DNA of 64,000 nt, taken from positions 29,227 through 93,226 of the IMG/VR virus record IMGVR_UViG_2850796239_000011; one strand, given 5' to 3'. How positions within the stretch are numbered: the stretch's first letter is position 1; each line of letters starts with the position of its first letter. The translations under genes were made by a program, and so were the position numbers. The notes under the pieces are model-generated. The model had not been told where the DNA came from. It saw only the letters and a list, made by a program, of their open reading frames with translations, and searched no databases. Source of the DNA: a virus. Taxonomy: Duplodnaviria; Heunggongvirae; Uroviricota; Caudoviricetes. This document shows positions 8,826 through 64,000 of the stretch, one piece after another.

Positions 8826-8852
8826 CCAGATACAAAATACAAAAAGAAACCT

Positions 8853-13016: not shown

Positions 13017-13342
13017 ATGACTAAAAATACTCGTTTTTCCCCGAAGTCCGTCAGAGGGCGATTCGTATGGTTCTGGAAAGTCAGGGCGAATATGACTCAC
13101 AGTGGGCGGCAATTTGTTCCATTGCCCCAAAGATTGGCTGTACACCGGAGACTCTGCGTGTCCGGGTACGCCAGCATGAGCGGGATACCGGAGGCGGTGA
13201 TGGCGGGCTCACCACCGCTGAACGTCAGCGTCTGAAAGAGCTGGAACGTGAAAATCGTGAACTGCGCCGCAGTAACGATATCCTTCGCCAGGCTTCCGCT
13301 TATTTTGCGAAGGCGGAGTTCGACCGCCTCTGGAAAAAATAA
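13017..13342 (+). pseudogene. IS629 orfA with frameshift in a C4 run
   Basis: Translation leaves the OrfA frame after MTKNTRFSP at CCCC 13039..13042 and resumes at 13067. Confidence 0.6.
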
Positions 13343-14965: not shown

Positions 14966-15295
14966 ATGCAGATGAACACCCAGAATACTCAACCGCAAAT
15001 AATGAACTATGACCCGAATCTGACGTCATGCGGACGCATGGCAAAACAAACCGTTCGATTAACTTTCGGACTATGGGAATACCGCGAAACATTCGAAGTT
15101 ACTGTCGGCGGCAATCTGACCGGACTGGATGTTATCAGTTGCGCTATTGAAAGCCTGTACGCAACGCTGCCTTATGAAGAAGTCGAGGATGAGCGCACAG
15201 GGGAAACAGATATCATGGCCACCATTAATATTGGCGAACTGATATGTCAGGATGAAGACCTGTCCGGAGAGCTCTGGCTTGCCGGGATGCTTTGA
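14966..15295 (+). CDS. Hypothetical protein, 3' end interrupted by IS600
   Basis: Stop codon is the first TGA of the IS600 end; frame continues after the IS to ~16608. Confidence 0.45.
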   Translation: MQMNTQNTQPQIMNYDPNLTSCGRMAKQTVRLTFGLWEYRETFEVTVGGNLTGLDVISCAIESLYATLPYEEVEDERTGETDIMATINIGELICQDEDLSGELWLAGML

Positions 15296-15356
15296 GGTAG
15301 CCTGAGTTTAACGGACACTCCTTCCTGAAATAGAATGGCATCAGAAGGAGCTAATA

Positions 15357-15659
15357 ATGAGCAGAAAAACCCAACGTTACTCTAAAGAGTTCAAAGCCGA
15401 AGCTGTCAGAACGGTTCTTGAAAATTAACTTTCGATCAGTGAAGGCGCTTCCCGATTATCCCTTCCTGAAGGCACTTTAGGACAATGGGTTACCGCCGCC
15501 AGAAAAGGGCTCGGTACTCCTGGTTCCCGCACGGTGGCTGAACTGGAATCTGAAATTCTGCAACTGCGTAAGGCGTTAAATGAAGCTCGCCTTGAGCGAG
15601 ATATATTAAAAAAAGCAACAGCGTATTTTGCACAGGAGTCGCTGAAAAATACGCGTTAA
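15357..15659 (+). pseudogene. IS600 orfA with nonsense codon (Gln24 to stop)
   Basis: GAA AAT TAA at 15420..15428 versus CAA in copies 1 and 3. Confidence 0.8.
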
Positions 15660-15694
15660 TCGAACAATGGCGACAACAATTTCCCATTGAAGCG

Positions 15695-16513
15695 ATGTGT
15701 CAGGTATTTGGTGTATCCAGGAGCGGTTATTACAACTGGGTACAGCATGAACCCTCAGACAGAAAACAAAGTGATGAGCGGCTAAAACTGGAGATTAAGG
15801 TGGCACATATCCGCACTCGCGAAACATATGGAACCCGGCGGCTCCAGACGGAGCTGGCAGAGAATGGCATCATCGTTGGTCGTGACCGACTGGCACGTCT
15901 TCGTAAGGAGCTAAGGCTACGCTGTAAGCAGAAACGCAAGTTCAGAGCGACTACGAACTCGAACCACAATCTGCCAGTTGCGCCAAATCTGCTGAACCAG
16001 ACGTTCGCTCCTACAGCACCAAATCAGGTCTGGGTGGCGGACCTGACGTATGTTGCCACACAGGAGGGATGGTTGTACCTCGCTGGCATCAAAGATGTTT
16101 ATACGTGCGAAATTGTCGGCTACGCCATGGGAGAGCGCATGACAAAAGAGCTGACAGGTAAAGCCCTGTTTATGGCGCTCAGGAGCCAGCGCCCACCTGC
16201 CGGGCTAATCCACCACTCTGATCGAGGTTCACAGTACTGCGCATACGATTACCGGGTCATACAGGAGCAGTTTGGTCTGAAAACATCAATGTCGCGTAAA
16301 GGTAACTGTTACGACAACGCTCCGATGGAAAGCTTCTGGGGAACGCTGAAAAATGAGAGCCTGAGCCACTATCGTTTTAATAACCGGGATGAAGCCATCT
16401 CAGTAATACGGGAATACATTGAGATTTTCTACAATCGTCAGCGTCGTCACTCTCGTCTGGGGAATATCTCCCCGGCAGCCTTCAGGGAAAAATATCATCA
16501 GATGGCTGCTTAA
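15695..16513 (+). CDS. IS600 transposase OrfB
   Basis: 272 aa, near-identical to other copies. Confidence 0.9.
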   Translation: MCQVFGVSRSGYYNWVQHEPSDRKQSDERLKLEIKVAHIRTRETYGTRRLQTELAENGIIVGRDRLARLRKELRLRCKQKRKFRATTNSNHNLPVAPNLLNQTFAPTAPNQVWVADLTYVATQEGWLYLAGIKDVYTCEIVGYAMGERMTKELTGKALFMALRSQRPPAGLIHHSDRGSQYCAYDYRVIQEQFGLKTSMSRKGNCYDNAPMESFWGTLKNESLSHYRFNNRDEAISVIREYIEIFYNRQRRHSRLGNISPAAFREKYHQMAA

Positions 16514-16641
16514 AAAAAGAACAAATGGTAGTGTCCGCTATTGCCAGTACACCTCACTTATCTCAGCAGAAATTATCAGTATTGAACCCGCTACAAACAT
16601 ACGGCTCTGAAGTTCTCACTATTCAGAGAGCAGGAGAAAAA

Positions 16642-16884
16642 ATGTTCGCTTTGATTAATCAGGGACAACTGTATACCGACAGTGCCGGTTACCCGGTAAA
16701 AATTATTCGCTGCATAAACAACACTGTGTTGTACAGAAGAATGGATGGGCGAACACAGTCAGTAAAAATAAACGATTTCAATGAACTGTTTGAACGGATC
16801 GATCACCAGGAATACCGACAAATTCTGGCAGAAACAGAGCAGGAAGCTCATCTGAAAAAATTACGGGCCATGAAAAGGAAGTAA
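16642..16884 (+). CDS. Hypothetical phage protein (80 aa)
   Basis: RBS AGGAG; followed by a 48-aa ORF at 16888..17034. Confidence 0.45.
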   Translation: MFALINQGQLYTDSAGYPVKIIRCINNTVLYRRMDGRTQSVKINDFNELFERIDHQEYRQILAETEQEAHLKKLRAMKRK

Positions 16885-17042
16885 AGAATGAATAAAGCGT
16901 TTGAGCTATGGGTACGCCAGCGTTACGGCAATCGCTATGACCTGACGCGAGATGTTGACGGTTTCTACTGTCGTGAAATTGTGAAACGAATGTTTGAAGT
17001 GTGGTGCCACTGCCGTGGGCTGAGTGTTGTGTGAGGTAATGC

Positions 17043-17279
17043 ATGGGCAATGTGATTCAACTGGCTCCCAATGAATGGGTTTGTGAAAGCGTTCTTATCG
17101 CAATTACCGGGCTCAAACCAGGCACAATTCTCCGAGCCCGGAAAGAATGCTGGATGGTAGGAAGAGAGTATATTCACGTATCACCAGACGGTAATCCAAA
17201 GCCATCCAGCGAATGTATGTATAACAGAAAAGCAATAGATGCCTGGGTCTCTTCAATGAAAAACAAACAACCTGGGTGA
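17043..17279 (+). CDS. Excisionase-like DNA-binding protein
   Basis: 78 aa, immediately upstream of integrase; recalled excisionase-like pattern. Confidence 0.65.
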   Translation: MGNVIQLAPNEWVCESVLIAITGLKPGTILRARKECWMVGREYIHVSPDGNPKPSSECMYNRKAIDAWVSSMKNKQPG

Positions 17280-17334
17280 TTTAATGCCATGAAGTATGTA
17301 AGCTCGTATCGCTCTTGGGCGTCTGGAGGTATCA

Positions 17335-18648
17335 ATGGATAAAGTCAAATATCCAACAGGCGTCGAAAACCACGGTGGCACATTACGCATCTGGTTTAAT
17401 TTTAAAGGTAAACGTGTCAGGGAAAATCTTGGTGTCCCTGACACTGCCAAGAACAGGAAGATCGCCGGAGAGCTGCGGACATCTGTATGTTTTGCCATTC
17501 GTACAGGAAATTTTGATTATGCTGCGCAGTTCCCTGACTCTCCTAACCTCAAGGCTTTTGGGGTAAATAAAAAAGAAATTACGGTGAAAGAACTTGAAGA
17601 AAAATGGCTGGATCTGAAACGAATGGAAATCTCTGCAAATGCATTCAATCGCTATGAATCCATTGCAAGGATGATGGTTCCGAAGATTGGTGGCAACCGA
17701 CTGGTATCAGCAGTGACCAAAGAGGAATTGCTGTATATCAGGAAAGATTTGCTGACCGGATACCAAAATCCAACAAAAGGTAAAGCTCCAGTAAAAGGAC
17801 GAAGCGTTGTCACAGTAAATTATTACATGACAACAATCGCTGGAATGTTTCAGTTTGCTGCAGATCACGGTTACATAGAAGCAAATCCCTTCGAGGGAAT
17901 TAAGCCTCTTAAAAGAGCCAGGGCAGAACCAGATCCGCTAACTCGTGACGAATTTATTCGCCTGATAGATGCTTGCCGGCATCAGCAGACAAAAAACCTG
18001 TGGTCATTGGCTGTGTACACAGGAATGCGTCATGGTGAACTGGTCTCCCTGGCCTGGGAAGATATCGATCTGAAAGCAGGAACAATTACTATCAGGCGCA
18101 ATTATACGAAACTCGGTGAGTTCACTCTACCTAAAACTGAAGCAAGTACAAACAGGGTTGTGCATCTTATCCAGCCCGCTATCAGTGTCCTGAAAAATCA
18201 GGCTGAAATGACAAGACTGGGTAAGCAGCACAACATCAAGGTTCAACTACGTGAATATGGACGTTCAGTAAATCATGAATGTACTTTCGTATTTAACCCC
18301 CAGGTGGTTAGAAAAAGCAAACAGGTAGGTTTTATCTACAAGGTAGATTCCATTGGCGACTCATGGGAAACAGCCATTAAACGTGCAGGCATCAGGCATC
18401 GAAAGGCATACCAGTCACGACACACTTATGCGTGCTGGTCATTATCTGCCGGAGCAAATCCAAGCTTCATTGCCAGCCAGATGGGGCATGCAAGTGCCCA
18501 GATGGTGTTCAATGTATACGGAGCATGGATGACTGACAGCAATGCAGAACAGATCGCAATGCTGAATCAGAAGCTGGCAGATTATGTCCCAATGATGTCC
18601 CATGGTCACCAAAGTGACACAAGAGGCTTATTAAAATCAGTGAGTTAG
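17335..18648 (+). CDS. Tyrosine integrase (437 aa)
   Basis: Arm-binding N-terminus and C-terminal catalytic region with R...HxxR...Y context. Confidence 0.9.
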   Translation: MDKVKYPTGVENHGGTLRIWFNFKGKRVRENLGVPDTAKNRKIAGELRTSVCFAIRTGNFDYAAQFPDSPNLKAFGVNKKEITVKELEEKWLDLKRMEISANAFNRYESIARMMVPKIGGNRLVSAVTKEELLYIRKDLLTGYQNPTKGKAPVKGRSVVTVNYYMTTIAGMFQFAADHGYIEANPFEGIKPLKRARAEPDPLTRDEFIRLIDACRHQQTKNLWSLAVYTGMRHGELVSLAWEDIDLKAGTITIRRNYTKLGEFTLPKTEASTNRVVHLIQPAISVLKNQAEMTRLGKQHNIKVQLREYGRSVNHECTFVFNPQVVRKSKQVGFIYKVDSIGDSWETAIKRAGIRHRKAYQSRHTYACWSLSAGANPSFIASQMGHASAQMVFNVYGAWMTDSNAEQIAMLNQKLADYVPMMSHGHQSDTRGLLKSVS

Positions 18649-18751
18649 CTTTTAATACCCGTCATGTTAACTGTTAATGAGGGCATTGAGTCGGGGGCTG
18701 GCAGCATACTGCGCAAGCACAGTGGCAGCCACATTCTGCACGTTATGCCTC

Positions 18752-19984
18752 CTAGAGTTTCACACTGATATCCGACACATCCAGAACCGGAATCTCATCT
18801 ATCCCGAAAGTGACAGCCGTTGTCCATGACGAACCGTCACGGCTCACAGTAAGGCCCAGAATATCAATATGTTCCGGATCGGTTTTGTAAATGCCGGCAT
18901 AGTAGCGCCCGGCAGAGACAACAGAGGCAACCCTTGCCCGCAGACCACCATCTGTACCATTAAATGCGTCCAGCACGGATTGCTGTACCTGTCGGGTAAT
19001 ATCTGAAGGCAGGTAGTCACTTTTTTTCAGCGTCACACTGACATGCAGACTGACGGGTTTGAGTGTCTGCCAGCTGATCACGTATTCAGGATACGGCGGA
19101 TCGTACTCCTTATCTGCAACAGTGAACGTTGTGTTGCCATTCATATCAATACCCGGCGGAGCCTTACGCCAGATGGCCGCCGCGATATCTGCCGGGCTGC
19201 CGCCGTACACGCCAACATAAAGCGAACCGGGTGTTAATGGATACTGACTGACTCCGGCTTTTTGTTCTGTTTTTTTCGGATTATGGGTGACGTAAACATC
19301 CACCACGTTTTCTACCGTGGAGAGTATTTCACCCCGGATGGCTTCCAGAATATTCCGGGCATTACGGGCAACTGAATTACGTCGGCGGTTTTCAAAGTCC
19401 GCACGGGTTTCCTCATCGCTGCCCGGCACACCGGCACTGGCGTTAGTGACACCTGACCAGCCAGGTATTGCCTTATAAATTTTATTCAGCGTCCCCACAG
19501 GACAGCCGACGGGGCCGGTGGACAAATTCAGAAATACCGCATCAACCTGCCCTGATGCGCCGATAGTGACGTCTGACTGACTGACATACTTATAACCGGC
19601 CTCATCCTGCGCCATACTGCCCGCCGGGATCAGCGTGCCAACCAGCCCGGTACAGGTCGCTGTTACTGTCGTACCTGTGGCCCCGCGGCGCTCCAGGAAA
19701 TAAATCCTGCCTATTGCATCCTGAAAGCGACCACTGGAAAAGTCAGGGTTGATCTGGTTAACGATATACAGCAACTGGTCGTTTTTATCCGCAATAATGG
19801 CGCTTTCGCTGGATGCAAGTTGTCCCTGCGGACTGCTCAGACTGGTACTCATGGCCCCGCCCAGCGCCGCCGAAAAATCAGCAAGCCTGCCGCTCAGAAT
19901 ATCCGCTTCATCCGGCACATTCAGCCCGCGATCCGAAATCTGTACAGCGGGCACTGCGGTAGAAAAAGATTTATTTTCACTCAT
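18752..19984 (-). CDS. Baseplate J-like protein (Mu gp47 family)
   Basis: 410 aa; gene order sheath-tube-tape measure-baseplate. Confidence 0.7.
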   Translation of the reverse strand: MSENKSFSTAVPAVQISDRGLNVPDEADILSGRLADFSAALGGAMSTSLSSPQGQLASSESAIIADKNDQLLYIVNQINPDFSSGRFQDAIGRIYFLERRGATGTTVTATCTGLVGTLIPAGSMAQDEAGYKYVSQSDVTIGASGQVDAVFLNLSTGPVGCPVGTLNKIYKAIPGWSGVTNASAGVPGSDEETRADFENRRRNSVARNARNILEAIRGEILSTVENVVDVYVTHNPKKTEQKAGVSQYPLTPGSLYVGVYGGSPADIAAAIWRKAPPGIDMNGNTTFTVADKEYDPPYPEYVISWQTLKPVSLHVSVTLKKSDYLPSDITRQVQQSVLDAFNGTDGGLRARVASVVSAGRYYAGIYKTDPEHIDILGLTVSRDGSSWTTAVTFGIDEIPVLDVSDISVKL

Positions 19985-20337
19985 AGCAATACCGTAAAAA
20001 TGTCATTATTGGTATCTGTAATACGCAGCACACCTGTTACTGTCCGGGTTTGATCAGCTGTGACCTGGCAGACAGCGGCGCTCACGGTCGGCAGTTTAAG
20101 TGCTTCCTGTTGCAGAGTGGCATTCACCAGTTGTGTGCCGGGCCAGTGTCCGAGGATGCGTGGCCAGTAAGGTATGCCAGCCGTTGAGTCGTACCAGCAC
20201 TCCCCCAGAAAAGTACTGCACGCACACGCCACATCCTGAGCTACCGCATGGGGATTATCAGTAATGGCAAGATTTCCGGTATCATCAAGCAGGATATCCC
20301 ATGTCCCGGTGTCAAGAAGAAGTGATCGTGACTGCAT
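19981..20337 (-). CDS. Baseplate protein (Mu gp46-like)
   Basis: 118 aa, overlaps neighbours. Confidence 0.6.
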   Translation of the reverse strand: MQSRSLLLDTGTWDILLDDTGNLAITDNPHAVAQDVACACSTFLGECWYDSTAGIPYWPRILGHWPGTQLVNATLQQEALKLPTVSAAVCQVTADQTRTVTGVLRITDTNNDIFTVLL

Positions 20338-20349
20338 GTTTTCTCCTGT

Positions 20350-21027
20350 TTACCGGGGTCCCTGCGTGGTTGAGCCGCCGGACTCAACGCCGCCGTGAAC
20401 GTGGTTTCCAAAATCAATACCCCCGATGTTCGAACCGCCGGAAAGCCTGGACTGCCCGGTAACGTCAAGCCCCTTACTGACGGCGGTATCGCCGTTCAGC
20501 GCAATTTGTGGTGAATTAACGGTGAAGCTTTTCGGCGCATTAATCACACCCTCAGGCGCGGATATCTCCACTTTCCAGGGAGATACAATCCGTATCTGGT
20601 TGTCATCAAATACCACAAACTGGACGGGATCACCGTTGAGCACGCCACCCAGCCAGATGGCATCAGCATAATTATGGGTACGCTTTGATCCCGGCATCGC
20701 AGCCTGACGCGTGGCTTTTACCGCACTGATATCCCGATCGCAGATGGCAAGAAAACCGATATCCCCCACATGTGGCGGCATAATCACCGCATTACCGCCC
20801 CCCTGTAGTCGCCATACGGGAATGTTATAAATCACCTCATGTTCAACCGGGGAACCGTCTGCTGCAACGCCCATTACCATCGGTCGGGCCTCAATAAATC
20901 CCTCTTCCACGGCTACCACCCGTCCCAGAGTGATAAACGCATGACGTCCGAGAAACTGCCGCAGCATAAAGTCCTGTGCATTGATTTCGCTGTTCACGTC
21001 TGTCGGGTTACTGAGTGGTTGTGCCAT
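20350..21027 (-). CDS. Baseplate assembly protein V-like (spike)
   Basis: 225 aa; Gly-rich C-terminus. Confidence 0.6.
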   Translation of the reverse strand: MAQPLSNPTDVNSEINAQDFMLRQFLGRHAFITLGRVVAVEEGFIEARPMVMGVAADGSPVEHEVIYNIPVWRLQGGGNAVIMPPHVGDIGFLAICDRDISAVKATRQAAMPGSKRTHNYADAIWLGGVLNGDPVQFVVFDDNQIRIVSPWKVEISAPEGVINAPKSFTVNSPQIALNGDTAVSKGLDVTGQSRLSGGSNIGGIDFGNHVHGGVESGGSTTQGPR

Positions 21028-21877
21028 TTTCTTCAGCCCTCATCATGGTACAGTTGGAACTCCACGGACCGCCCACGGTTCGCGAAGTAATGGTGTGTAT
21101 CACCCCTGTGATCGTATAATCGCCCGTCATATCAGGCAGTGACGATTCCAGATGCGCTGGCCTGCCAGTAAAGAGATCGGGGCAGAATATCGTGGTGGCG
21201 CTGAGTCCGGTCATGGTGTAAACCGGATAGCCAGTCAGTCCGTGATCCGGCGAAATCAGTACCGGCGGAATATTCCGGTTCTGCCCTTTCGGCCAGATGG
21301 TGACTTTCTCCACATTCCCCAGATCAATGTTAATATCGGCGGCTGAAGCGACATCCAGCATTTGTTGTACAACATTACCGGAAAAATGCGGGTCAGACAG
21401 ACTGCGGCTGACCCCCTGGTTTTCAAATCCAAGCCCGACAGTTGACGCCAGCGCACGGATAATATCTGCAACCGCAACATCGCCCTTTGCGCTGAAATCT
21501 GCCGCCGGCTGATTACGCAGATTAAAATGAATCTGTCCTGTCAGAATGAGCGGAATATCCGGCGCCTGGTTGTAGTCGGCGTATGCATCAGTAATATCAC
21601 CTTCAAAAATAAGCCGCCCGTCGGCCCACAGCCGCATTTTATTTGCGGTACTCTGCTCCTGTCGCCACACACCGCGCCAGCTTAAATTCGTCATATGCGC
21701 CGGTGACATTCCCCAGATATACAGCGTGATTTGTGTACCAGCCACCCCTCCATATACGCCAATACTGGCAAAACAGCTTGCGTCGGTAATGGTCAGCATA
21801 TTGCCCTGGCCATTACCAAACGTTCGTCCGTCTGAAAGAGTGAACTCCACCGTTATTTTACGTTGTCTGTAGCTCAT
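21008..21877 (-). CDS. Baseplate hub/tail protein
   Basis: 289 aa, position. Confidence 0.5.
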
Positions 21878-22176
21878 ATCAGTTCCTCAGGTAACAGCCA
21901 GTAGAGCCGGTACCGGGATCCGAGCCCCCGCCAGTCAGGGTCACTATTCCCCTCCGTGTCGGTAAAAAACAGGTCCCCCTGAAACGGCAGGTATCCGTAC
22001 CGGACAATCCGGTTATTATTCAGACACAGCACGCCATACAGGCACGGTTCACCATTAACAATGATATCGATATACATCCCCGTAGTACGCTGATTCAGGC
22101 GAATGGTGCAGACCTGAGCGCCCAGTGTCACCGTAAACTGCTGGGCTTTAACGGGAGATAAAACAATTTCCAGCAT
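21874..22176 (-). CDS. Hypothetical tail protein (100 aa)
   Basis: Operon position. Confidence 0.4.
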
Positions 22177-22886
22177 CAGGTGATCCCCCTGTTCGTGGCG
22201 CTTCGTCTGTCAGCGTCTGACGGTTGTGTCACCGACGCCGTAACTGACTGCGTTTTAACCGATGCGGCCCCTTTTGCTTTATCGTTGTCCGTGGGAGACG
22301 ACTTATCCGTACTTCCCACTGACACCTCTCCTGTATTCATTACGGTCTGAAATACCGCAGTAACCGTCAGTAAGGTCGGACCATTATTACTTCGCATTCG
22401 GTAGTCATATTTCACAAGGTCGCAGGATGTCCATGTCTTGTCCGGCGTCTCAATATCGTAGAGTCCTGCCGTGGTACGCATCCTTTCAAGCGTTTCCAGC
22501 ACATTCGTCCGCGAGGTGGTGGAAAAATTTGTCAGGTTCGGGACGGATCCGGAAAAGGCCGTCCACCCCTCTACAGTGAAAGTCACATGCAGTTCCGGCG
22601 ATCTCTGGATTTTATTAAAGGTGGTATAAGCCCCCTGCTCCACGGGGACGGTGGAAACAGAAGCCTCCGCGCCCACCTCAACGACAACAAAAGAATCCGG
22701 GGAGAAAGGTTTGCCACCCTTCTGATGGGCACCTGCCGGATCATTCCGTGCGTAATAAATACCGAATGACGGTGCCAGTACACTGTTAATGAGTCCCAGG
22801 ACACCGCCGCCACGAACTGCACTCAGTACGTTACTTTCACTGAGCGAAAAGTTATTCAGGGAAATATTATCGAAAGAAAAACTCAT
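22176..22886 (-). CDS. Tail protein (236 aa)
   Basis: Operon position downstream of tape measure. Confidence 0.5.
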
Positions 22887-55798: not shown

Positions 55799-55910
55799 AT
55801 TCACTATCGCCACTTTTATTGGCGATGAAAAGATGTTTCGTGAAGCCGTCGACGCTTATAAAAAATGGATATTAATGCTGAAACTGAGATCAAGCAAAAG
55901 CATTCACTAA
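55767..55910 (+). CDS. kil: Kil (host killing protein)
   Basis: 47 aa, lambda Kil; overlaps cIII 3' end. Confidence 0.85.
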
Positions 55911-56281
55911 CCCCCTTTCCTGTTTTCCTAATCAGCCTAGCATTTCGCGGGCGATATTTTCACAGCTATTTCAGGAGTTCAGCCATGAACGCTTATTACA
56001 TTCAGGATCGTCTTGAGGCTCAGAGCTGGGCGCGTCACTACCAGCAGATCGCCCGTGAAGAGAAAGAGGCAGAACTGGCAGACGACATGGAAAAAGGCCT
56101 GCCCCAGCACCTGTTTGAATCGCTATGCATCGATCATTTGCAACGCCACGGGGCCAGCAAAAAAGCCATTACCCGTGCGTTTGATGACGATGTTGAGTTT
56201 CAGGAGCGCATGGCAGAACACATCCGGTACATGGTTGAAACCATTGCTCACCACCAGGTTGATATTGATTCAGAGGTATAA
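55865..56281 (+). CDS. gam: Gam (RecBCD inhibitor)
   Basis: 138 aa, near-identical to lambda Gam. Confidence 0.95.
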
Positions 56282-56286
56282 AACGA

Positions 56287-57072
56287 ATGAGTACAGCACT
56301 CGCAACGCTGGCAGGGAAGCTGGCTGAACGTGTCGGCATGGATTCTGTCGACCCACAGGAACTGATCACCACTCTTCGCCAGACGGCATTTAAAGGCGAT
56401 GCCAGCGATGTGCAGTTCATCGCATTGCTGATCGTCGCCAACCAGTACGGCCTTAATCCGTGGACGAAAGAAATTTACGCCTTTCCTGACAAGCAGAACG
56501 GCATCGTTCCGGTGGTGGGCGTTGATGGCTGGTCCCGCATCATCAATGAAAACCAGCAGTTTGATGGCATGGACTTTGAGCAGGACAATGAATCCTGTAC
56601 ATGCCGGATTTACCGCAAGGACCGCAATCATCCGATCTGCGTTACCGAATGGATGGATGAATGCCGCCGCGAACCATTCAAAACCCGCGAAGGCAGAGAA
56701 ATCACGGGGCCGTGGCAGTCGCATCCCAAACGGATGTTACGGCATAAAGCCATGATTCAGTGTGCCCGTCTCGCCTTCGGATTTGCTGGTATCTATGACA
56801 AGGATGAAGCCGAGCGCATTGTCGAAAATACCGCATACACTGCAGAACGTCAGCCGGAACGCGACATCACTCCGGTTAACGATGAAACCATGCAGGAGAT
56901 TAACACTCTGCTGATCGCCCTGGATAAAACATGGGATGACGACTTATTGCCGCTCTGTTCCCAGATATTTCGCCGCGACATTCGAGCATCGTCAGAACTG
57001 ACACAGGCCGAAGCAGTGAAAGCTCTTGGATTCCTGAAACAGAAAGCCACTGAGCAGAAGGTGGCAGCATGA
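56287..57072 (+). CDS. bet: Bet (Red-beta single-strand annealing protein)
   Basis: 261 aa, lambda Bet. Confidence 0.95.
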
Positions 57073-57749
57073 CACCGGACATTATCCTGCAGCGTACCGG
57101 GATCGACGTGAGAGCTGTCGAACAGGGGGATGATGCATGGCACAAATTACGGCTCGGCGTCATCACCGCTTCAGAAGTTCACAACGTGATAGCAAAGCCC
57201 CGCTCAGGAAAGAAGTGGCCTGACATGAAAATGTCCTACTTCCACACCCTGCTGGCTGAGGTTTGCACCGGTGTGGCTCAGGAAGTTAATGCTAAGGCGC
57301 TGGCATGGGGAAAACAGTACGAGAACGACGCCAGAACTCTGTTTGAATTCACTTCCGGCGTGAATGTTACTGAATCCCCGATCATCTATCGCGACGAAAG
57401 TATGCGCACCGCCTGCTCTCCCGATGGTTTATGCAGTGACGGCAATGGCCTTGAGCTGAAATGCCCGTTTACCTCCCGGGATTTCATGAAGTTCCGGCTC
57501 GGTGGTTTCGAGGCCATAAAGTCGGCTTACATGGCCCAGGTGCAGTACAGCATGTGGGTGACACGAAAAGATGCCTGGTACTTTGCCAACTATGACCCGC
57601 GTATGAAGCGTGAAGGACTGCATTATGTCGTGGTTGAGCGGGATGAAAAGTACATGGCGAGTTTTGACGAGATGGTGCCGGAGTTCATCGAAAAAATGGA
57701 CGAGGCACTGGCTGAAATTGGTTTTGTATTTGGGGAGCAATGGCGATGA
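57069..57749 (+). CDS. exo: Exo (lambda exonuclease)
   Basis: 226 aa, lambda Exo. Confidence 0.95.
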
Positions 57750-57928
57750 CGCATCCTCACGATAATATCCGCGTAGGCACGATCACTTTCGTCTACTCCG
57801 TTACGAAGCGAGGCTGGGTATTTCCCGGCCTTTCTGTTATCCGAAATCCCCTGAAAGCACAGCGGCTGGCTGAGGAGATAAATAATAAACGGGGAGCTGT
57901 ATGCACAAAGCATCTCCCGTTGAGTTAA
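57740..57928 (+). CDS. Lambda orf60a-like protein
   Basis: 62 aa, position after exo. Confidence 0.6.
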
Positions 57929-58092
57929 GAACGAGTATCGAGATGGCACATAGCCTCGCTCAAATTGGAGTCAGGTTTGTGCCAATACCAGTAGAAACAG
58001 ACGAAGAATTTCATACGTTAGCCGCATCCCTTTCACAAAAGCTGGAAATGATGGTGGCGAAAGCAGAAGCAGATGAGAGAGACCAGGTATGA
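57901..58092 (+). CDS. Lambda orf63-like protein
   Basis: 63 aa. Confidence 0.6.
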   Translation: MHKASPVELRTSIEMAHSLAQIGVRFVPIPVETDEEFHTLAASLSQKLEMMVAKAEADERDQV

Positions 58093-58168
58093 CAACCACG
58101 GAATGCATTTTTCTGGCAGCGGGCTTCATATTTTGTGTGCTTATGCTTGCCGACATGGGACTTGTTCA

Positions 58169-58384
58169 ATGACACCTCAGCAAGAAAACGCCCTTCGCAG
58201 CATTGCCCGTCTGGCTAACTCTGAAATCAAAAAAGCCAGACAGCAGTTTCCGGATAAAAACGTCGATGACATTTGCCGTAGCGTACTGAAGAAGCATCGC
58301 GAAACGGTAACGCTGATGGGATTCACACCGACTCATTTAAGTCTGGCGATCGGCATGTTAAACGGCGTCTTTAAGGAGCGATGA
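58169..58384 (+). CDS. Lambda orf61-like protein
   Basis: 71 aa from ATG 58169. Confidence 0.55.
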   Translation: MTPQQENALRSIARLANSEIKKARQQFPDKNVDDICRSVLKKHRETVTLMGFTPTHLSLAIGMLNGVFKER

Positions 58385-58482
58385 ACATGAAAAGCAAAAT
58401 CATCAGGGAGCTACAGGCTCCTTTTTTATTGTTCGCATTCACCCTCAAGCGTATTAACCAACAATTCAGGGATTAATGGAAG

Positions 58483-58704
58483 ATGGCAGACATCATTGAT
58501 TCAGCATCAGAAATTGAAGAATTACAGCGCAACACAGCAATAAAAATGCGCCGCCTGAACCACCAGGCTATATCTGCCACTCATTGTTGTGAGTGTGGCG
58601 ATCCGATAGATGAACGAAGACGCCTGGTCGTTCAGGGTTGTCGGACTTGTGCAAGTTGCCAGGAAGATCTGGAGCTTATCAGTAAACAGAGAGGTTCGAA
58701 GTGA
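58483..58704 (+). CDS. DksA/TraR-type C4 zinc-finger protein
   Basis: CCECGDPIDERRR...CRTCASCQ motif. Confidence 0.7.
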   Translation: MADIIDSASEIEELQRNTAIKMRRLNHQAISATHCCECGDPIDERRRLVVQGCRTCASCQEDLELISKQRGSK

Positions 58705-59072
58705 GTGAAATTAACTCTCAGGCACTGCGTGAAGCGGCAGAACGCGCTATTCCGGCAATGGAACGATTGTTGATACTTTCATTTGATGATAGGTTGTTAA
58801 GCGACCAGGAACTAAAAGATTACGACGTGGATATTGATGCGATTAACAACTTCAAACTGCTGGCCGGTCCGAAAACGGTACTGGCGCTGCTAGATGAACG
58901 GGAAAGAAACCAGCAATACATCAAACGCCGCGACCAGGAGAACGAGGAAATTGCGCTAACGGTAGGAAAGCTGCGCGTTGAGCTGGAAGCAGCAAAATCA
59001 AAACTCAACGAGCAGCGTGAATATTACGAAGGTGTTATCTCGGATGGAAGTAAGCGTATTGCTGAACTGTAG
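58701..59072 (+). CDS. Hypothetical protein (123 aa)
   Basis: Coupled to upstream gene; coiled-coil-like C-terminus. Confidence 0.5.
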   Translation: MSEINSQALREAAERAIPAMERLLILSFDDRLLSDQELKDYDVDIDAINNFKLLAGPKTVLALLDERERNQQYIKRRDQENEEIALTVGKLRVELEAAKSKLNEQREYYEGVISDGSKRIAEL

Positions 59073-59322
59073 GCCTAGGTTGTATGTACAAGATTTGCAT
59101 ACGTAAGAGCAAAAGACAAGGGAGAATTGATCAGAGTTATTACCTGCCAACCAACGGGATATTACGCTTACGTACCATGTAACTAGGAATCCTTGAAGTG
59201 GCAGCCTAACTGTGGATACACTGAAATGGCGATTTGGTAACATGTTTCGCACAAGGCTGTTACTACGCTTAGAGATAATCAGTCATGATTAAATGCTTTG
59301 TAAAAAGTAAAAGGAAATTACA

Positions 59323-59937
59323 ATGAAAAAATCAACACTAATTTTAGGGCTTACGTTAATTGTCTCATCTCAAATACCATCGGCAATGGCAAAAAATGAA
59401 TCAAAACTTTGGGTTGTTGTTGATCGAACGGAAAGACATACCTGCCCTTCAAGTAAATGTGGAGTGGCTGGGAAACTATTTTTCAGGGAAGGCGTAGATT
59501 TTCTAGAAAAAAAAGGTGAATGGGTTCGTATAACTGAGCCATATTCAGCCTCATGTATGGGAGGGGAAAGCGAATATATTAAAGAAGGTAATAAATCCTG
59601 CACAAGAAAAAACGGAATCGTTAATGGCAAGTTTTCAGAATGGGTTAAACTTAGTGATCTTAGCAGTGAAAGGCCATCAGATCCTGCTGAAAATGCGAGC
59701 GGAAATGATACCTTAATCAAAGGATCTGATGACTACCGTATATACAAAAAAGAGTTTTCTTCGGCAGCTAGGAAGTTAATAAGTGAAGGTGTCTGCACGG
59801 AGAGCGATTTTAAGGAAATTGGAGGGTGGATGGCATCAAGCAATAAGGGTGAAAACATCTATTTCACATATTGCGGAGGAATGACGTTGTCGAACAGAAT
59901 ATATCTAGACGTTAAAAGTGGAAAGACTTTTAGATAA
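59323..59937 (+). CDS. Secreted protein of unknown function (moron)
   Basis: Signal peptide ending AMA; several Cys; visibly AT-rich; followed by hairpin. Confidence 0.6.
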   Translation: MKKSTLILGLTLIVSSQIPSAMAKNESKLWVVVDRTERHTCPSSKCGVAGKLFFREGVDFLEKKGEWVRITEPYSASCMGGESEYIKEGNKSCTRKNGIVNGKFSEWVKLSDLSSERPSDPAENASGNDTLIKGSDDYRIYKKEFSSAARKLISEGVCTESDFKEIGGWMASSNKGENIYFTYCGGMTLSNRIYLDVKSGKTFR

Positions 59938-60005
59938 TATGATATTACCAATGACAGCATTAATTTAATGCCTCCATAGAATTATCTCTAGGAAGTAAGT
60001 ATAAG

Positions 60006-60040
60006 AAAAGCCCGCACAATGAGCTGCTGCGGGCTTTGTG
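60006..60040. terminator. Putative terminator hairpin after moron
   Basis: AGCCCGCA-N11-TGCGGGCT with T-rich flank. Confidence 0.4.
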
Positions 60041-60239
60041 TTATTCGCCATATTTTATGAAGCAAATACGACACTATAGATAATTAAGCGTTACTGGTTG
60101 TCGATTCCTCACTCATTCCTGCTGATGGCTGTCTTCTTGTATGTGCCATTGAAGGGTAATATCGCGTAAAAAGATACCGGAAGTATCCGCGCCGCCATGA
60201 TTGTCTTTCTCCTGATGCAGGAAAAGCAGAATGACTAAA

Positions 60240-60570
60240 TCAGCAGCAGAGCGCAAAGCCGATCAGAGAGCCAAGCAAGCATCATCCGGTATGCGTAAGC
60301 TGGAGCTTGTACTTGATGCTCAGGAAATTGAAATGCTGGAGCGTAACTGAGCCACGCGCCGCTTCAGGCGTGCGCCTTACGAGTTTGGTGAGTACATAGC
60401 GTTACTGAGCCGCCAGGATGATGCACGTGTGCGCTGGCGTATAAAATCGATTAGCAGAAAACGTTGCCGTAAGTGCGGCGAGAGAGTTCCTGTTAATTCA
60501 TGCCCGTGTAATGGTGACTCACAATACTGGGTGACCAAAGGCTGGCACGAAACAAAATTAATGATATAAA
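60240..60570 (+). pseudogene. Small Cys-rich ORF split by an in-frame TGA
   Basis: Hand translation: 39 codons, TGA at 60357..60359, then 70 in-frame codons with CxxC...CxC. Confidence 0.35.
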
Positions 60571-60597
60571 TCTCTGTGACATGTCACGGAGGCGGCA

Positions 60598-61026
60598 ATG
60601 AAATTAGACCAGCAATATCTAAAAGATCTACTTATCGCATTCGAAAAAACTTATGGCCCTGACACGATGCTTAGTGAACTAGAGGATAATGGCTTTAATA
60701 GATATGACCAAAATTTTATTTTCCATATGCGATTATTATGTGACTACGAATTAATAGTTAGGGTTGATGGAAAACCTGGGTTCGGTCATATAATGTCCAA
60801 CGAGTTAGGGGAAGGTGTTGAATATAGTTGGATCGAAGTACCACTGAGGTTGACAGCAAGAGGGCATGATTTTATTGCTGACTTACGTCAAAAGGAGGTC
60901 TGGCAAGCTATAAAAACAAACTTTAAGGATGAGGGAATTAGTACTCTTATGAGTGTTTCAAAATCACTAGCAAAAGGCTTTGCAAGGAAAAAAATAAAAG
61001 ATATTACAGGAATAGATATTGAATAA
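60598..61026 (+). CDS. DUF2513-like protein (142 aa)
   Basis: AT-rich gene near int; family by recall. Confidence 0.5.
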   Translation: MKLDQQYLKDLLIAFEKTYGPDTMLSELEDNGFNRYDQNFIFHMRLLCDYELIVRVDGKPGFGHIMSNELGEGVEYSWIEVPLRLTARGHDFIADLRQKEVWQAIKTNFKDEGISTLMSVSKSLAKGFARKKIKDITGIDIE

Positions 61027-61316
61027 TTCTTAGCATCAAGCAACTACTGCCTTTGGTAAAAATTATATCTGAACTCGATACGGCGAGTTTTGTTTTACGG
61101 AGATGATAAATGCACTTCAGAGTCACTGGTGAATGGAATGGAGAACCATTCAACAGAGTTATCTAAGCAGAGAACATCAATGACTGCTATGACCACTGGA
61201 TGATATGGGCGCAGATAGCACATGCAGACATAACCAATATTCGAATTGAAGAACTGAAAGAACACCAAGCCGCCTGATGGCGGTTTTTTCTTGCGTGTAA
61301 TTGCGGAGACTTTGCG

Positions 61317-61535
61317 ATGTACTTGACACTTCAGGAGTGGAACGCTCGCCAGCGACGCCCAAGAAGCCTTGAAACAGTTCGTCGATGGGTGCGCGAATGC
61401 AGGATATTCCCTCCTCCGGTTAAGGATGGAAGAGAATATCTGTTCCACGAATCAGCGGTAAAGGTTGACTTAAATCGACCAGTAACAGGTAGCCTTTTGA
61501 AGAGGATCAGAAATGGGAAGAAGGCGAAGTCATGA
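61317..61535 (+). CDS. xis: Excisionase Xis (lambda)
   Basis: 72 aa, near-identical to lambda Xis. Confidence 0.95.
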   Translation: MYLTLQEWNARQRRPRSLETVRRWVRECRIFPPPVKDGREYLFHESAVKVDLNRPVTGSLLKRIRNGKKAKS

Positions 61536-62583
61536 GCGCCGGGATTTACCCCCTAACCTTTATATAAGAAACAATGGATATTACTGCTACAGGGACCCAA
61601 GGACGGGTAAAGAGTTTGGATTAGGCCGAGACAGGCGAATCGCAATCACTGAAGCTATACAGGCCAACATTGAGTTATTTTCAGGACACAAACACAAGCC
61701 TCTGACAGCGAGAATCAACAGTGATAATTCCGTTACGTTACATTCATGGCTTGATCGCTACGAAAAAATCCTGGCCAGCAGAGGAATCAAGCAGAAGACA
61801 CTCATAAATTACATGAGCAAAATTAAAGCAATAAGGAGGGGTCTGCCTGATGCTCCACTTGAAGACATCACCACAAAAGAAATTGCGGCAATGCTCAATG
61901 GATACATAGACGAGGGAAAGGCGGCATCAGCCAAGTTAATCAGATCAACACTGAGCGATGCATTCCGAGAGGCTATGGCTGAAGGCCATATAACAACAAA
62001 CCCGGTCGCAGCCACTCGCGCTGCAAAATCAGAGGTAAGGAGATCAAGACTTACGGCTGACGAATACCTGAAAATTTATCAAGCAGCAGAATCATCACCA
62101 TGTTGGCTTAGACTTGCAATGGAACTGGCTGTTGTTACCGGGCAGCGAGTTGGTGATTTATGCGAAATGAAGTGGTCTGATATCGTAGATGGATATCTTT
62201 ATGTCGAGCAAAGCAAAACAGGCGTAAAAATTGCCATCCCAACAACATTGCATGTTGATGCTCTCGGGATATCAATGAAGGAAACACTTGATAAATGCAA
62301 AAAGATTCTTGGCGGAGAAACCATAATTGCATCTACTCGTCGTGAACCGCTTTCATCCGGCACAGTATCAAGGTATTTTATGCGCGCACGAAAAGCATCA
62401 GGTCTCTCCTTCGAAGGGGATCCGCCAACCTTTCACGAGTTGCGCAGTTTGTCTGCAAGACTCTATGAGAAGCAGATAAGCGATAAATTTGCTCAACATC
62501 TTCTCGGGCATAAGTCGGACACCATGGCATCACAGTATCGTGATGACAGAGGCAGGGAGTGGGACAAAATTGAAATCAAATAA
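61513..62583 (+). CDS. int: Integrase Int (lambda)
   Basis: 356 aa, near-identical to lambda Int. Confidence 0.95.
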   Translation: MGRRRSHERRDLPPNLYIRNNGYYCYRDPRTGKEFGLGRDRRIAITEAIQANIELFSGHKHKPLTARINSDNSVTLHSWLDRYEKILASRGIKQKTLINYMSKIKAIRRGLPDAPLEDITTKEIAAMLNGYIDEGKAASAKLIRSTLSDAFREAMAEGHITTNPVAATRAAKSEVRRSRLTADEYLKIYQAAESSPCWLRLAMELAVVTGQRVGDLCEMKWSDIVDGYLYVEQSKTGVKIAIPTTLHVDALGISMKETLDKCKKILGGETIIASTRREPLSSGTVSRYFMRARKASGLSFEGDPPTFHELRSLSARLYEKQISDKFAQHLLGHKSDTMASQYRDDRGREWDKIEIK

Positions 62584-62671
62584 TGATTTTATTTTGACTG
62601 ATAGTGACCTGTTCGTTGCAACAAATTGATAAGCAATGCTTTTTTATAATGCCAACTTAGTATAAAAAGCA
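62584..62671. other. attL (lambda P' arm plus core) at the prophage-chromosome junction
   Basis: P' arm sequence, core TTAGTATAAAAAGC (five A), then chromosomal arm AGGCTTCAACGGATTC. Confidence 0.8.
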
Positions 62672-62716: not shown

Positions 62717-64000
62717 GTGAACACATTTTCAGTTTCCCGTCTGGCGCTGGCATTGGCTTTTGGCGTGACGCTGACCGCCTGTAGCTCAACCCCGCCCGAT
62801 CAACGTCCTTCTGATCAAACCGCGCCTGGTACCTCTTCTCGCCCGATTCTGTCGGCAAAAGAAGCGCAGAATTTCGATGCTCAACACTATTTTGCATCCC
62901 TGACACCAGGTGCGGCAGCGTGGAATCCTTCCCCGATTACCCTGCCTGCGCAACCTGACTTTGTTGTCGGCCCGGCGGGCACTCAAGGTGTAACGCATAC
63001 CACGATTCAGGCGGCGGTAGATGCGGCAATTATCAAGCGTACCAACAAGCGCCAGTATATTGCCGTGATGCCTGGTGAGTATCAGGGAACGGTATATGTC
63101 CCTGCCGCTCCGGGTGGAATTACTCTGTACGGTACAGGTGAAAAACCGATTGATGTGAAGATTGGGCTTTCCCTTGATGGTGGCATGAGCCCTGTCGACT
63201 GGCGTCACGACGTCAACCCGCGCGGCAAATATATGCCAGGTAAACCAGCGTGGTATATGTACGATAGCTGCCAGAGCAAACGCAGCGACAGTATCGGTGT
63301 TCTCTGTTCTGCGGTCTTCTGGTCACAAAACAATGGCCTGCAACTGCAAAATCTGACCATCGAAAACACGCTGGGCGATAGCGTAGATGCAGGTAACCAT
63401 CCGGCGGTGGCACTGCGTACTGACGGTGACCAAGTACAGATTAACAACGTTAACATTCTCGGTCGTCAGAACACCTTCTTTGTCACCAACAGCGGTGTGC
63501 AGAACCGTCTGGAAACGAATCGTCAGCCGCGTACGCTGGTGACCAACAGCTACATTGAAGGGGATGTGGATATCGTTTCTGGTCGCGGCGCAGTGGTGTT
63601 CGATAACACCGAATTCCGCGTGGTGAACTCACGTACTCAGCAAGAAGCGTATGTGTTTGCACCGGCAACGCTGTCCAACATTTACTACGGTTTCCTCGCC
63701 GTAAACAGCCGTTTCAATGCTTTCGGTGATGGCGTGGCGCAACTGGGCCGCTCGCTGGATGTTGATGCAAATACCAACGGTCAGGTGGTGATCCGTGATA
63801 GTGCCATCAACGAAGGTTTTAACACGGCTAAACCGTGGGCCGATGCGGTGATCTCTAATCGTCCGTTTGCGGGTAATACCGGCAGCGTAGATGATAACGA
63901 CGAAATACAGCGCAATCTGAATGACACTAACTACAACCGCATGTGGGAATACAATAACCGCGGCGTGGGTAGTAAAGTGGTTGCAGAGGCGAAGAAGTAA
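62717..64000 (+). CDS. ybhC: YbhC, pectinesterase-family outer-membrane lipoprotein (chromosomal)
   Basis: 427 aa matching recalled E. coli YbhC; lipobox LTAC; GTG start. Confidence 0.9.
   Translation: MNTFSVSRLALALAFGVTLTACSSTPPDQRPSDQTAPGTSSRPILSAKEAQNFDAQHYFASLTPGAAAWNPSPITLPAQPDFVVGPAGTQGVTHTTIQAAVDAAIIKRTNKRQYIAVMPGEYQGTVYVPAAPGGITLYGTGEKPIDVKIGLSLDGGMSPVDWRHDVNPRGKYMPGKPAWYMYDSCQSKRSDSIGVLCSAVFWSQNNGLQLQNLTIENTLGDSVDAGNHPAVALRTDGDQVQINNVNILGRQNTFFVTNSGVQNRLETNRQPRTLVTNSYIEGDVDIVSGRGAVVFDNTEFRVVNSRTQQEAYVFAPATLSNIYYGFLAVNSRFNAFGDGVAQLGRSLDVDANTNGQVVIRDSAINEGFNTAKPWADAVISNRPFAGNTGSVDDNDEIQRNLNDTNYNRMWEYNNRGVGSKVVAEAKK

Follow-up and report, generated by a model that had tools for sequence, protein, structure and literature searches.

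In the 64,000-nucleotide stretch of DNA analysed here (hereafter the window), we detected a lambda-like prophage whose attB lies beside ybhC. Comparison with lambda (J02459) by blastn showed that a block of 1,992 bp (59070-61061, plus strand), for which no lambda counterpart was found, stands in place of 762 bp of lambda (30095-29334), with ea8.5 missing altogether and ea22 lacking its 3' end. Lambda homology stops within ea22 at position 59069 (lambda 30096), which sets the left junction at 59069/59070, and a truncated Ea22-like ORF of 123 amino acids (58701-59072, plus strand; PF13935, E = 1e-33) marks this border; the equivalent gene is called partial by PGAP. To the right, homology resumes at 61062-61316 (plus strand), a segment with a terminator-like hairpin (61267-61286) just 5' of xis and an orf55-like ORF (61110-61277) that is interrupted early, at codon 19, by TAA. 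The right-hand neighbours, also on the plus strand, are xis (61317-61535; Pfam Exc) and int (61513-62583; Pfam Phage_integrase and Arm-DNA-bind_1), followed by the equivalent of the lambda att core (about 62657-62671; the alignment to lambda extends to 27727) and by ybhC, whose annotated start is 62717.

The adjoining lambda genes (orf60a, orf63, orf61, an orf73-like gene and the truncated ea22) are those of the exo-xis region, so the block occupies the exo-xis variable slot and not the b region in which the initial annotation had placed it. The variable part of this region holds ea8.5 and orf55 in lambda and diverse genes in Stx phages (PMC8614690), and exo-xis genes are early modulators transcribed from pL (PMC8614690; PMC3824215). 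That the cargo is absent from lambda, as the same annotation had stated, was confirmed by blastn and by tblastn against 50,697 phage records including lambda; these comparisons showed no homology between the block and the lambda exo-xis genes ea8.5, ea22 (C-terminus) or orf55. The whole block is present in 131 of 5,426 complete E. coli genomes (about 2%) and in phage Chlobot. A search of 58900-61600 with Rfam gave only a sub-threshold Thr_leader match, and hence neither a riboswitch nor an sRNA between the genes.

Two plus-strand genes in the block had been proposed, and both proved real, with exact coordinates: a gene of 204 codons (orf204; 59323-59937), which matches phrog_8310 (no function recorded), and a gene for a 142-residue DUF2513 protein (60598-61026; phrog_585). 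A third gene between them had been overlooked, a disrupted ORF of 112 amino acids (p112; 60231-60569, plus strand; phrog_536). Between orf204 and p112 lies a short umuD remnant (UmuD/HumD-like, S24 peptidase; 60091-60168, plus strand; translation LLVVDSSLIPADGCLLVCAIEG), and in ATCC 8739 and 0H25 the PGAP annotation at the equivalent place is a partial "DNA repair protein". The visible AT-richness of the two genes held up in the comparison with flanking genes that had been suggested as a check. They are the most AT-rich coding DNA of the window, with a GC content of 0.384 for orf204 (GC3 0.307) and 0.352 for the DUF2513 gene (GC3 0.287) against 0.492 for the whole window and 0.45-0.53 for the flanking genes. 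Across the 64 kb, 1.0% of the equal-length windows are as AT-rich as orf204 and 0.06% as AT-rich as the DUF2513 gene.

The hairpin reported downstream of orf204 was identified as an intrinsic terminator (60007-60045, plus strand). It consists of a GC-rich hairpin (60007-60037) of about -18 kcal/mol (centroid; the minimum free energy is -19.3 for the whole 56-nt stretch) followed by the U-tract UUUGUGUUAUU, with z = -2.4 relative to shuffled sequences; the scan also sees it from the minus strand. Upstream, we identified a candidate sigma-70 promoter (59193-59222, plus strand), in which TTGAAG and TACACT are separated by an 18-nt spacer (8/12 match to consensus). A consensus promoter scan called no plus-strand site, and this weak match was not among its calls. 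Between the lambdoid copies and the copy in a P1-like element of E. fergusonii, both hexamers are invariant and the spacer is variable.

The protein encoded by orf204 begins with a signal peptide, as the initial annotation had read it: inspection and hydropathy revealed an n-region (MKK), a hydrophobic h-region (STLILGLTLIV; Kyte-Doolittle values up to 2.35) and a c-region (SSQIPSAMA-K) in which an A-x-A motif marks cleavage after residue 23, corresponding to Sec type I export. Residues 1-24 are disordered in the AF2 model, and homologues carry signal or lipoprotein leaders of variable sequence at the same place. We rejected the protein itself as a lipoprotein, as its leader has no lipobox Cys and its LPAM_1 match is below threshold. 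Its cysteine content, also remarked upon earlier, comprises six residues (41, 46, 78, 93, 158 and 184), all conserved in at least 90% of the family.

The AF2 models (pLDDT 89) predict an SH3b-type fold at about residues 27-110, with a disulfide-bearing insert, joined by an RPxDPA linker to an uncharacterised C-terminal domain (about 125-204). The sequence scores 16.1 bits against PF08239 (SH3_3), below the gathering threshold of 27, and several homologues have a precomputed PF08239 match. A PDB sequence search returned spurious summed matches to designed TIM barrels and only marginal SH3b matches. For the C-terminal domain, the best Foldseek match in BFVD had an E-value of 0.84. This module of about 80 residues is recognised by the motifs SDDY...C...GGW.xS...YFTYCGG...NRIYL and by one conserved Cys pair, which is kept even in homologues that miss the other four cysteines. 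It is autonomous: two viral contigs (L072 and L076) encode stand-alone ORFs made of a signal peptide and this domain. An enzymatic function was judged unlikely for it because there is no conserved His and the two cysteines behave as a disulfide pair.

Using a library clustered at 50% identity, we found about 1,500 clusters that match the orf204 domain (E <= 0.001), spanning Escherichia, Pseudomonas, Aeromonas, Vibrio and metagenomes. Among the 50,697 phage records, tblastn detected orf204 in phage Chlobot only. The P1-like element of E. fergusonii carries a homologue with 84% DNA identity; the homology starts at 59181 of the window and includes 142 bp upstream of the gene and excludes the downstream DNA. 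Other homologues are found in Pseudomonas integrase islands, on a ColE1-type plasmid of 5.3 kb, between the lysis and terminase genes of a viral contig (L061), and in Aeromonas in an accessory region that separates Q from the holin gene and also contains restriction-modification and toxin-antitoxin genes. IncA plasmids with a captured prophage fragment also carry the orf204 cassette, and several E. coli-type loci (L098 and L115-117) have p112 and DUF2513 and lack orf204. A scan for functional clues among the neighbouring genes, in the islands of Pseudomonas and on the small plasmid, yielded nothing beyond an integrase and a weak match to a PHROG named "transcriptional regulator". More distant homologues are ordinary chromosomal lipoproteins, and thus the domain may have a housekeeping role in the envelope rather than an anti-phage one. 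IS elements have inserted within or beside orf204 in several strains, which indicates that the gene is dispensable.

The 112-residue protein has an RHH-like N-terminal region (weak match to NF008671, E = 0.007) and a Cys-rich, zinc-ribbon-like C-terminal region, and its gene is the partner of the DUF2513 gene. It is inactivated in the window by an in-frame TGA (60348-60350, codon 40) that replaces a Cys codon, and is called a pseudogene by PGAP; the window allele further has Tyr for a conserved Cys at position 99 in the Cys-rich region. The gene is intact in Chlobot and 0H25, and the codon-40 stop is found in 17 of the 39 E. coli-type loci, with DUF2513 intact. Readthrough as selenocysteine was considered and rejected: the downstream hairpin does not differ from shuffled sequences (z = -0.12), there was no SECIS match, and the Tyr at position 99 and the pseudogene call also speak against it.

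The assignment of the 142-residue protein to DUF2513 was borne out by a match of 42.7 bits to PF10711 (gathering threshold 29.6) that covers the full model (1-100 of 100). We identified 113 homologues in Enterobacterales; all 28 that were aligned match PF10711 and are full length, and they share 19 invariant residues. Among the phage records, tblastn detected the protein only in Chlobot and two distant phages. Members of the family recurrently give weak winged-helix matches, and DUF2513 is probably a winged-helix protein, judging from these sequence matches; PDB searches with the single sequence and with a profile returned nothing. The gene has no promoter or terminator of its own, only a weak hairpin (61071-61090; -7 kcal/mol, z = -1.0). 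Elsewhere it sits inside the early operons of other lambdoid prophages, often 29-32 nt behind the 112-codon partner, and the two-gene arrangement recurs in Cronobacter prophages. Among 41 divergent DUF2513 loci, 13 have p112 directly upstream and 25 have no p112 homologue at all. Since it lacks its own signals and is sited in early operons, the gene looks more like an early-operon accessory gene than like a lysogenic-conversion moron; it forms with p112 a portable pair in which p112 comes first.

Function searches were negative. At E <= 1, no defence-protein HMM of PADLOC-DB 2.0 matched orf204, DUF2513 or the 112-residue protein, and NCBIfam gave nothing for orf204 or DUF2513. All family members are annotated as "hypothetical", and we found no paper that names DUF2513, PF10711, the two PHROG identifiers or the RefSeq accessions.

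The interval is routine mosaic phage cargo, already present in public genomes as hypothetical genes. We are fairly confident that it combines an exported SH3b-type cargo cassette with a separate p112/DUF2513 cassette of the early operon. The first would comprise a likely promoter of its own, a long 5' leader, the ORF and the strong intrinsic terminator. Its product would be exported by Sec and cut after Ala23, and in the periplasm it would fold into the SH3b-type domain and an alpha/beta domain of about 80 residues, probably with three disulfides. The SH3b domain may tether the protein to peptidoglycan, and the effector part may be the C-terminal domain, which is also found in phages on its own, preceded only by a signal peptide. 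The most likely role of such a protein would be to protect the envelope of the lysogen, whether by interfering with the proteins that superinfecting phages use for wall degradation or ejection, or through immunity to exogenous wall-targeting toxins. Envelope protection specifically is a tentative proposal to which we give well under even odds, and it is more doubtful than the architecture. The p112/DUF2513 pair (the former a nonsense pseudogene here) would be transcribed from pL when the phage grows lytically or is induced, and DUF2513 would most likely act as a nucleic-acid-binding regulator or host-takeover factor; that it is a nucleic-acid-binding early protein is plausible, at a little under even chances. 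Established by the analysis are the anatomy, the folds, the export signal, the evidence of selection, and the distribution and mobility of the cassettes; the activity of the promoter, the disulfides, the attachment to peptidoglycan and all biological roles are inferences. Taken as a whole, a mosaic cargo block of two independently mobile modules, with an exported, envelope-protecting orf204 and an early-operon pair, is an account that we favour slightly.

Alternatively, both genes might simply be passengers, expressed by read-through of the early pL transcript under N antitermination. They would then serve the phage when it grows lytically or is induced, as do other exo-xis genes, which adjust the choice between lysis and lysogeny, and would have no part in lysogenic conversion. 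In the pL operon they share their orientation with bet, exo, xis and int, the exo-xis genes are early pL-transcribed modulators (PMC8614690; PMC3824215), DUF2513 homologues lie within the early-right operons of other prophages, no promoter rose above the scan threshold, and a free-living phage, Chlobot, retains the block. For orf204, however, the strong terminator 3' of the gene, its transfer into non-lambdoid elements together with the 142 bp of conserved DNA that precede it, its presence on a small plasmid and in islands that are not phages, and the predicted export of a wall-binding protein, unlike the cytoplasmic regulators of the region, all argue against such passengers, and we consider this explanation rather unlikely. 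A further alternative for orf204 is a lysis accessory, a periplasmic peptidoglycan binder that modulates the phage's own endolysin/spanin step or prevents premature lysis. SH3b domains commonly occur in endolysins and wall hydrolases, and homologues are found beside endolysin genes in two viral contigs (L061 and L070) and between Q and the holin gene in Aeromonas. Yet orf204 lies about 19 kb from the lysis genes here, in the opposite transcription unit, many homologues reside in islands or plasmids without lysis genes, and cargo is classically found in the slot that lies between lysis and terminase genes; a role in lysis seems improbable.

For p112 and DUF2513, the compact cassette with its 29-nt spacer, the upstream RHH-like N-terminus and the portability between phages resemble a toxin-antitoxin or abortive-infection pair, in which an RHH antitoxin would precede a small toxin. 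We found that the upstream gene is not indispensable: its nonsense codon beside an intact DUF2513 speaks against a classical antitoxin, which would not tolerate such a loss, as do the many divergent DUF2513 loci without any p112. With no PADLOC match and the resemblance of DUF2513 to winged-helix DNA binders, such a pair is still less probable than a lysis role for orf204. Decay at a degrading prophage end would explain why p112 and the orf55-like neighbour are pseudogenes here, why a umuD remnant is present and why IS elements lie nearby in some strains. That the ORFs are functionless junk is already contradicted by selection and conservation and is very improbable, for orf204 has a dN/dS of 0.09-0.17, has kept an intact reading frame in E. 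coli, E. fergusonii, Pseudomonas and Aeromonas and is modelled with confidence by AF2, and every aligned DUF2513 homologue keeps its full length and invariant residues.

The two-cassette reading can be extended, as speculation, to a C-terminal module of orf204 that would represent an undescribed exported domain family of a new periplasmic superinfection-exclusion or anti-wall-toxin immunity class, and, separately, to p112 and DUF2513 as a new portable two-gene cassette with a regulatory or anti-defence role in the early operons of lambdoid phages. This domain family may be used by phages, phage-plasmids, integrase islands and small plasmids, either alone or tethered to peptidoglycan by SH3b. 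If orf204 does protect the lysogen envelope, a widespread exported domain would join the catalogue of prophage-encoded exclusion and immunity functions, and part of the poorly understood exo-xis variable slot would have its first function. The pair of DUF2513 and its 112-residue partner provides an entry point to the uncharacterised Pfam family DUF2513 (PF10711; PHROG 585), of which the 142-residue protein is a full member and for which sequence searches give no solved structure.

Compared with the SH3b domains (PF08239) of endolysins, lysostaphin and NlpC/P60 hydrolases, the domain of orf204 has no catalytic domain attached, carries a C-x4-C motif in the RT-loop region and a two-Cys insert, and belongs to a predicted Gram-negative periplasmic protein that scores below the Pfam gathering threshold. 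Exclusion and immunity proteins such as T4 Sp (spackle), T5 Llp, phi80 Cor and P22 SieA, and those against T6SS effectors and colicin M, are small envelope proteins borne by mobile elements, with signal peptides and often with disulfide bonds. They are our favoured functional analogy for orf204, an analogy and not a membership, as no homology or fold match was detected. The slot is identical to the variable part of the exo-xis region (PMC8614690), 3' of orf60a-orf63-orf61-orf73-ea22 and 5' of xis, with ea8.5 physically replaced; neither orf204 nor DUF2513 is homologous to ea8.5, ea22 or orf55, and the characterised proteins of this region are small cytoplasmic regulators, whereas the orf204 product is predicted to be exported.

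Both genes had been called morons, a class defined with HK97 gp15 and lambda bor and lom (Cumby et al. 2012, PMC3594210), and one of them resembles this class in most structural respects. The block is extra DNA between otherwise contiguous genes (1,992 bp for 762 bp), and the composition of both genes is unlike that of their surroundings (the lowest 1% and 0.06% of windows); orf204 alone has its own terminator, and DUF2513, without transcription signals of its own and sited in early operons elsewhere, differs from morons (PMC3594210). The orf204 cassette shares most of the structural traits of a moron: it differs in composition, has a terminator, travels horizontally as a cassette that includes its upstream region, and is carried by some prophages and missing from others that are otherwise identical. 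Like the morons described (PMC3594210), it spreads as a unit and occupies a site at a module boundary, and the candidate promoter upstream may be its own. Although its product shows no sequence or fold relationship to the characterised moron products, gp15, Bor and Lom are located in the envelope, and the same location is predicted for the product of orf204.

The window closes with ybhC (62717-64000), just upstream of which lie int (61513-62583, plus strand) and xis (61317-61535, plus strand). Encoded on the same strand 5' of xis/int are bet, exo and small ORFs for DUF1317, DUF1382, a TraR/DksA zinc finger and an Ea22-like protein, and together these genes form the pL early-left operon of a lambda-like prophage that occupies the lambda attB site. 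Using direct alignment with lambda J02459, we mapped the junctions: window 55800-58741 corresponds to lambda 33297-30355 (97.6% identity), 58878-59069 to lambda 30287-30096, inside ea22 (92.7%), and 61062-62668 to lambda 29333-27727 with orf55, xis, int and the att core (97.6%). The block at 59070-61061 (1,992 bp) found no counterpart in lambda J02459 in this alignment and replaces lambda 30095-29334, the 3' end of ea22 and the whole of ea8.5; it therefore lies in the exo-xis region and not, as the initial annotation had placed it, next to the b region. The ea22-like gene (58701-59072) is truncated or fused, its stop codon falling exactly at the recombination junction where lambda homology ends at 30096. 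Just 5' of xis, an orf55-like ORF (61110-61277) is cut short by a TAA at codon 19; it is intact in ATCC 8739 and 0H25.

The prophage tail genes (18752-22886, minus strand) encode Baseplate_J, E217 gp41-like baseplate hub and Dit-like proteins, and the virion module is thus not lambda-like, despite an early-left region 97.6% identical to lambda. Adjoining the tail end of the prophage, the left third of the window (1-18650) is a second mobile element with a DnaB-like helicase (1471-2862), a Rha/Ash regulator (4873-6735), three copies of an IS3-family transposase (10568-11386, 13342-14229 and 15695-16513) and a different tyrosine integrase with an Arm-DNA-bind_2 domain (17335-18648); it may represent a tandem or nested integration at or near attB.

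Two ORFs of the block, of 204 aa (orf204, 59323-59937) and 142 aa (a DUF2513 gene, 60598-61026), had been reported as AT-rich, the former with a signal peptide and a downstream hairpin. This observation holds, and at the sequence level its description is correct: both ORFs exist at these coordinates, with GC 0.384 and GC3 0.307 for orf204 and GC 0.352 and GC3 0.287 for the DUF2513 gene (window, 0.492; flanking genes, 0.45-0.53), and an AT content this high is reached by just 1.0% and 0.06%, respectively, of windows of the same size in the 64 kb. By inspection, orf204 has the n-, h- and c-regions and A-x-A site of a signal peptide; the hairpin (60007-60037; about -18 kcal/mol in the centroid structure, z = -2.4 against shuffles) is followed by a U-tract, and DUF2513 scores 42.7 bits against a Pfam gathering threshold of 29.6. 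Absent from that first description, and located between the two ORFs, are a UmuD-like gene remnant of ~75 nt (60091-60168, from the PGAP annotation of identical DNA) and a 112-aa RHH/zinc-ribbon ORF (60231-60569, GC 0.50) that matches phrog_536 ("transcriptional regulator").

The orf204 leader (MKK-STLILGLTLIV-SSQIPSAMA/K) has a Sec-signal layout; residues 1-24 are unstructured in the AF2 model, and homologues carry variable leaders (signal, lipoprotein or membrane-anchor) at the equivalent place. A homology search returned about 80 close relatives, mostly of about 204 aa, from Escherichia, Pseudomonas, Aeromonas and metagenomes, with no named protein among them. In a library clustered at 50% identity, 1,489 clusters match the orf204 profile at E <= 0.001, some with N-terminal ankyrin repeats, a zinc ribbon and membrane anchor, or additional SH3b copies; by sequence, orf204 itself is under the Pfam SH3_3 threshold (16.1 vs 27 bits). 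Cys41, 46, 78, 93, 158 and 184 are each retained by 90% or more of the 35 relatives aligned. Two distant relatives lack the first four and keep Cys158 and Cys184, a pattern that fits a C-domain with one putative disulfide and an SH3b insert with two. The C-domain is autonomous: two viral contigs encode it by itself, preceded by a signal peptide in one (L072:5917-6225) and by a lipoprotein signal in the other (L076:886-1215). Since orf204 has no conserved His and no other obvious catalytic set, we read it as a probable binder rather than an enzyme. The exported C-terminal domain family, which is unnamed, is one of two modestly new points.

Homologues of orf204 occur in diverse contexts. On an E. 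fergusonii P1-like phage-plasmid, the gene for an 88%-identical protein lies just after a HumD-like gene, and DNA homology with the window covers only 59181-59939, that is 142 bp upstream and the ORF. Here, TTGAAG (59193-59198) and TACACT (59217-59222) are invariant and the 18-nt spacer varies, which makes TTGAAG-18-TACACT a plausible but weak candidate sigma-70 promoter, not called by a consensus scan; the ATG is preceded at 7 nt by AAGGA, a good Shine-Dalgarno sequence. In ~5-kb Pseudomonas islands, the homologue is immediately 3' of a tyrosine integrase, always beside sdhE and nadB; six such loci (~5-6 kb, ORFs otherwise unannotated) lie between sdhE/cptA and nadB, near the algU operon. In an Aeromonas prophage, the 12-kb accessory region that separates Q from the holin gene includes a homologue, adjoining RM and HigBA-like genes; another copy is on a 5.3-kb ColE1-type plasmid, and those of more distant organisms are apparently chromosomal lipoproteins. 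At every locus compared, the small plasmid excepted, the surrounding DNA has a lower AT content than the gene. Some E. coli-type prophages have the 112-aa and DUF2513 genes without orf204. UmuD/UmuC-type genes or remnants recur near the homologues (window 60091-60168, L025:3681-4073, L070:2144-3842), and in two divergent contexts (L078:6145-6945, L079:1861-2184) the neighbors are secreted Excalibur-domain or SNase proteins, which suggests that exported cargo proteins are clustered.

Of 5,426 complete E. coli genomes, 131 contain the entire block (96.8-99.5% identity), as does one isolated phage, Chlobot; counted singly, orf204 is found in 132 of these genomes and DUF2513 in 183. Chlobot is the one carrier of orf204 in a set of 50,697 deposited phage genomes; DUF2513 was detected there in Chlobot and two distant relatives. 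Large plasmids of Citrobacter, Klebsiella and Enterobacter have also picked up a prophage fragment with the block (an IncA replicon in the Citrobacter freundii plasmid inspected). Six viral loci combine the same block and an identical xis with an integrase only 74% identical to that of the window, thus the block circulates among lambdoid prophages with divergent integrases. Its genes are all annotated as "hypothetical protein" or "DUF2513 domain-containing protein". The block is ordinary mosaic cargo, in a slot already known as variable and in many sequenced genomes. One carrier is an ATCC 8739 derivative with IS1 upstream of orf204, about 60 bp 5' of the ATG; several strains have IS1, IS3 or IS5 within orf204 or immediately 5' of it. 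These insertions show that orf204 is dispensable and make the AT-rich block an apparent IS target.

The 113 relatives of DUF2513 (47-98% identity; every organism-named one from Enterobacterales) have 19 invariant residues in common, including FHMRLL..D...R.DG and PLRLT..GHDF, the latter a motif that typically closes a winged helix. Weak winged-helix matches recur among members (wHTH-PRTase_assc in 11/28, HTH_12 in 4/28); no solved homologue, mention in the literature or defence-system match was found. Prophages of Citrobacter, Cronobacter and Serratia have the gene inside the early-right operon, 3' of the replication and nin genes or just 5' of the small terminase gene, where it behaves like an accessory gene of early lytic growth. 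The assignment we tentatively favor for DUF2513 is a protein that binds nucleic acid and is expressed early, from pL. In Cronobacter, a 112-aa homologue precedes DUF2513 at 27 nt and the pair aligns as a single DNA unit with window 60230-60903; among 80 viral loci, the 112-aa gene is 29-32 nt 5' of DUF2513 in nearly all E. coli-type copies and in 13 of 41 divergent copies. Thus the two genes recur as a cassette without being obligatory partners, which is the other modestly new point.

Such tight pairing could suit a TA pair. An in-frame TGA (60348-60350) interrupts the 112-aa gene of the window, which is intact in Chlobot and 0H25, where the codon is TGC (Cys); because this codon-40 stop allele is common (17/39 E. 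coli-type viral loci, with 16/39 intact), it argues against an antitoxin role. A selenocysteine reading of the TGA was considered and rejected. The truncated product is matched by phrog_34005, a 40-aa PHROGs family. Junk is a very unlikely reading of the ORFs: orf204 is clearly under purifying selection, with dN/dS of 0.17 in comparison with Chlobot and 0.09 with the E. fergusonii copy. A lysis accessory would suit two viral contigs, in which the homologue lies between lysis and terminase genes or, in Pseudomonas, beside an endolysin gene and umuDC (2 kb upstream); it is an unlikely reading, as many homologues occupy islands or plasmids devoid of lysis genes. A pure pL passenger would agree with its place in the operon, and has to be weighed with its terminator and its occurrence on plasmids.

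We consider it quite likely that orf204 is an exported SH3b-type cargo cassette. As an autonomous cargo unit, it would encode an exported, disulfide-bonded product held on peptidoglycan through SH3b, with the C-domain displayed in the periplasm. Given that it is carried by phages, phage-plasmids, integrase islands and a small plasmid, at classic cargo sites with RM, TA and umuDC-type genes, its likeliest role would be to shield the envelope of the carrier cell, by excluding superinfecting phages or by immunity to wall-targeting toxins; even so, this specific role is a rather doubtful proposal. Morons have been described as having different GC, their own promoter and terminator, and horizontal spread (PMC3594210). 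Compared with this description, orf204 agrees in composition, terminator, insertion and mobility, whereas its promoter is a weak candidate only.
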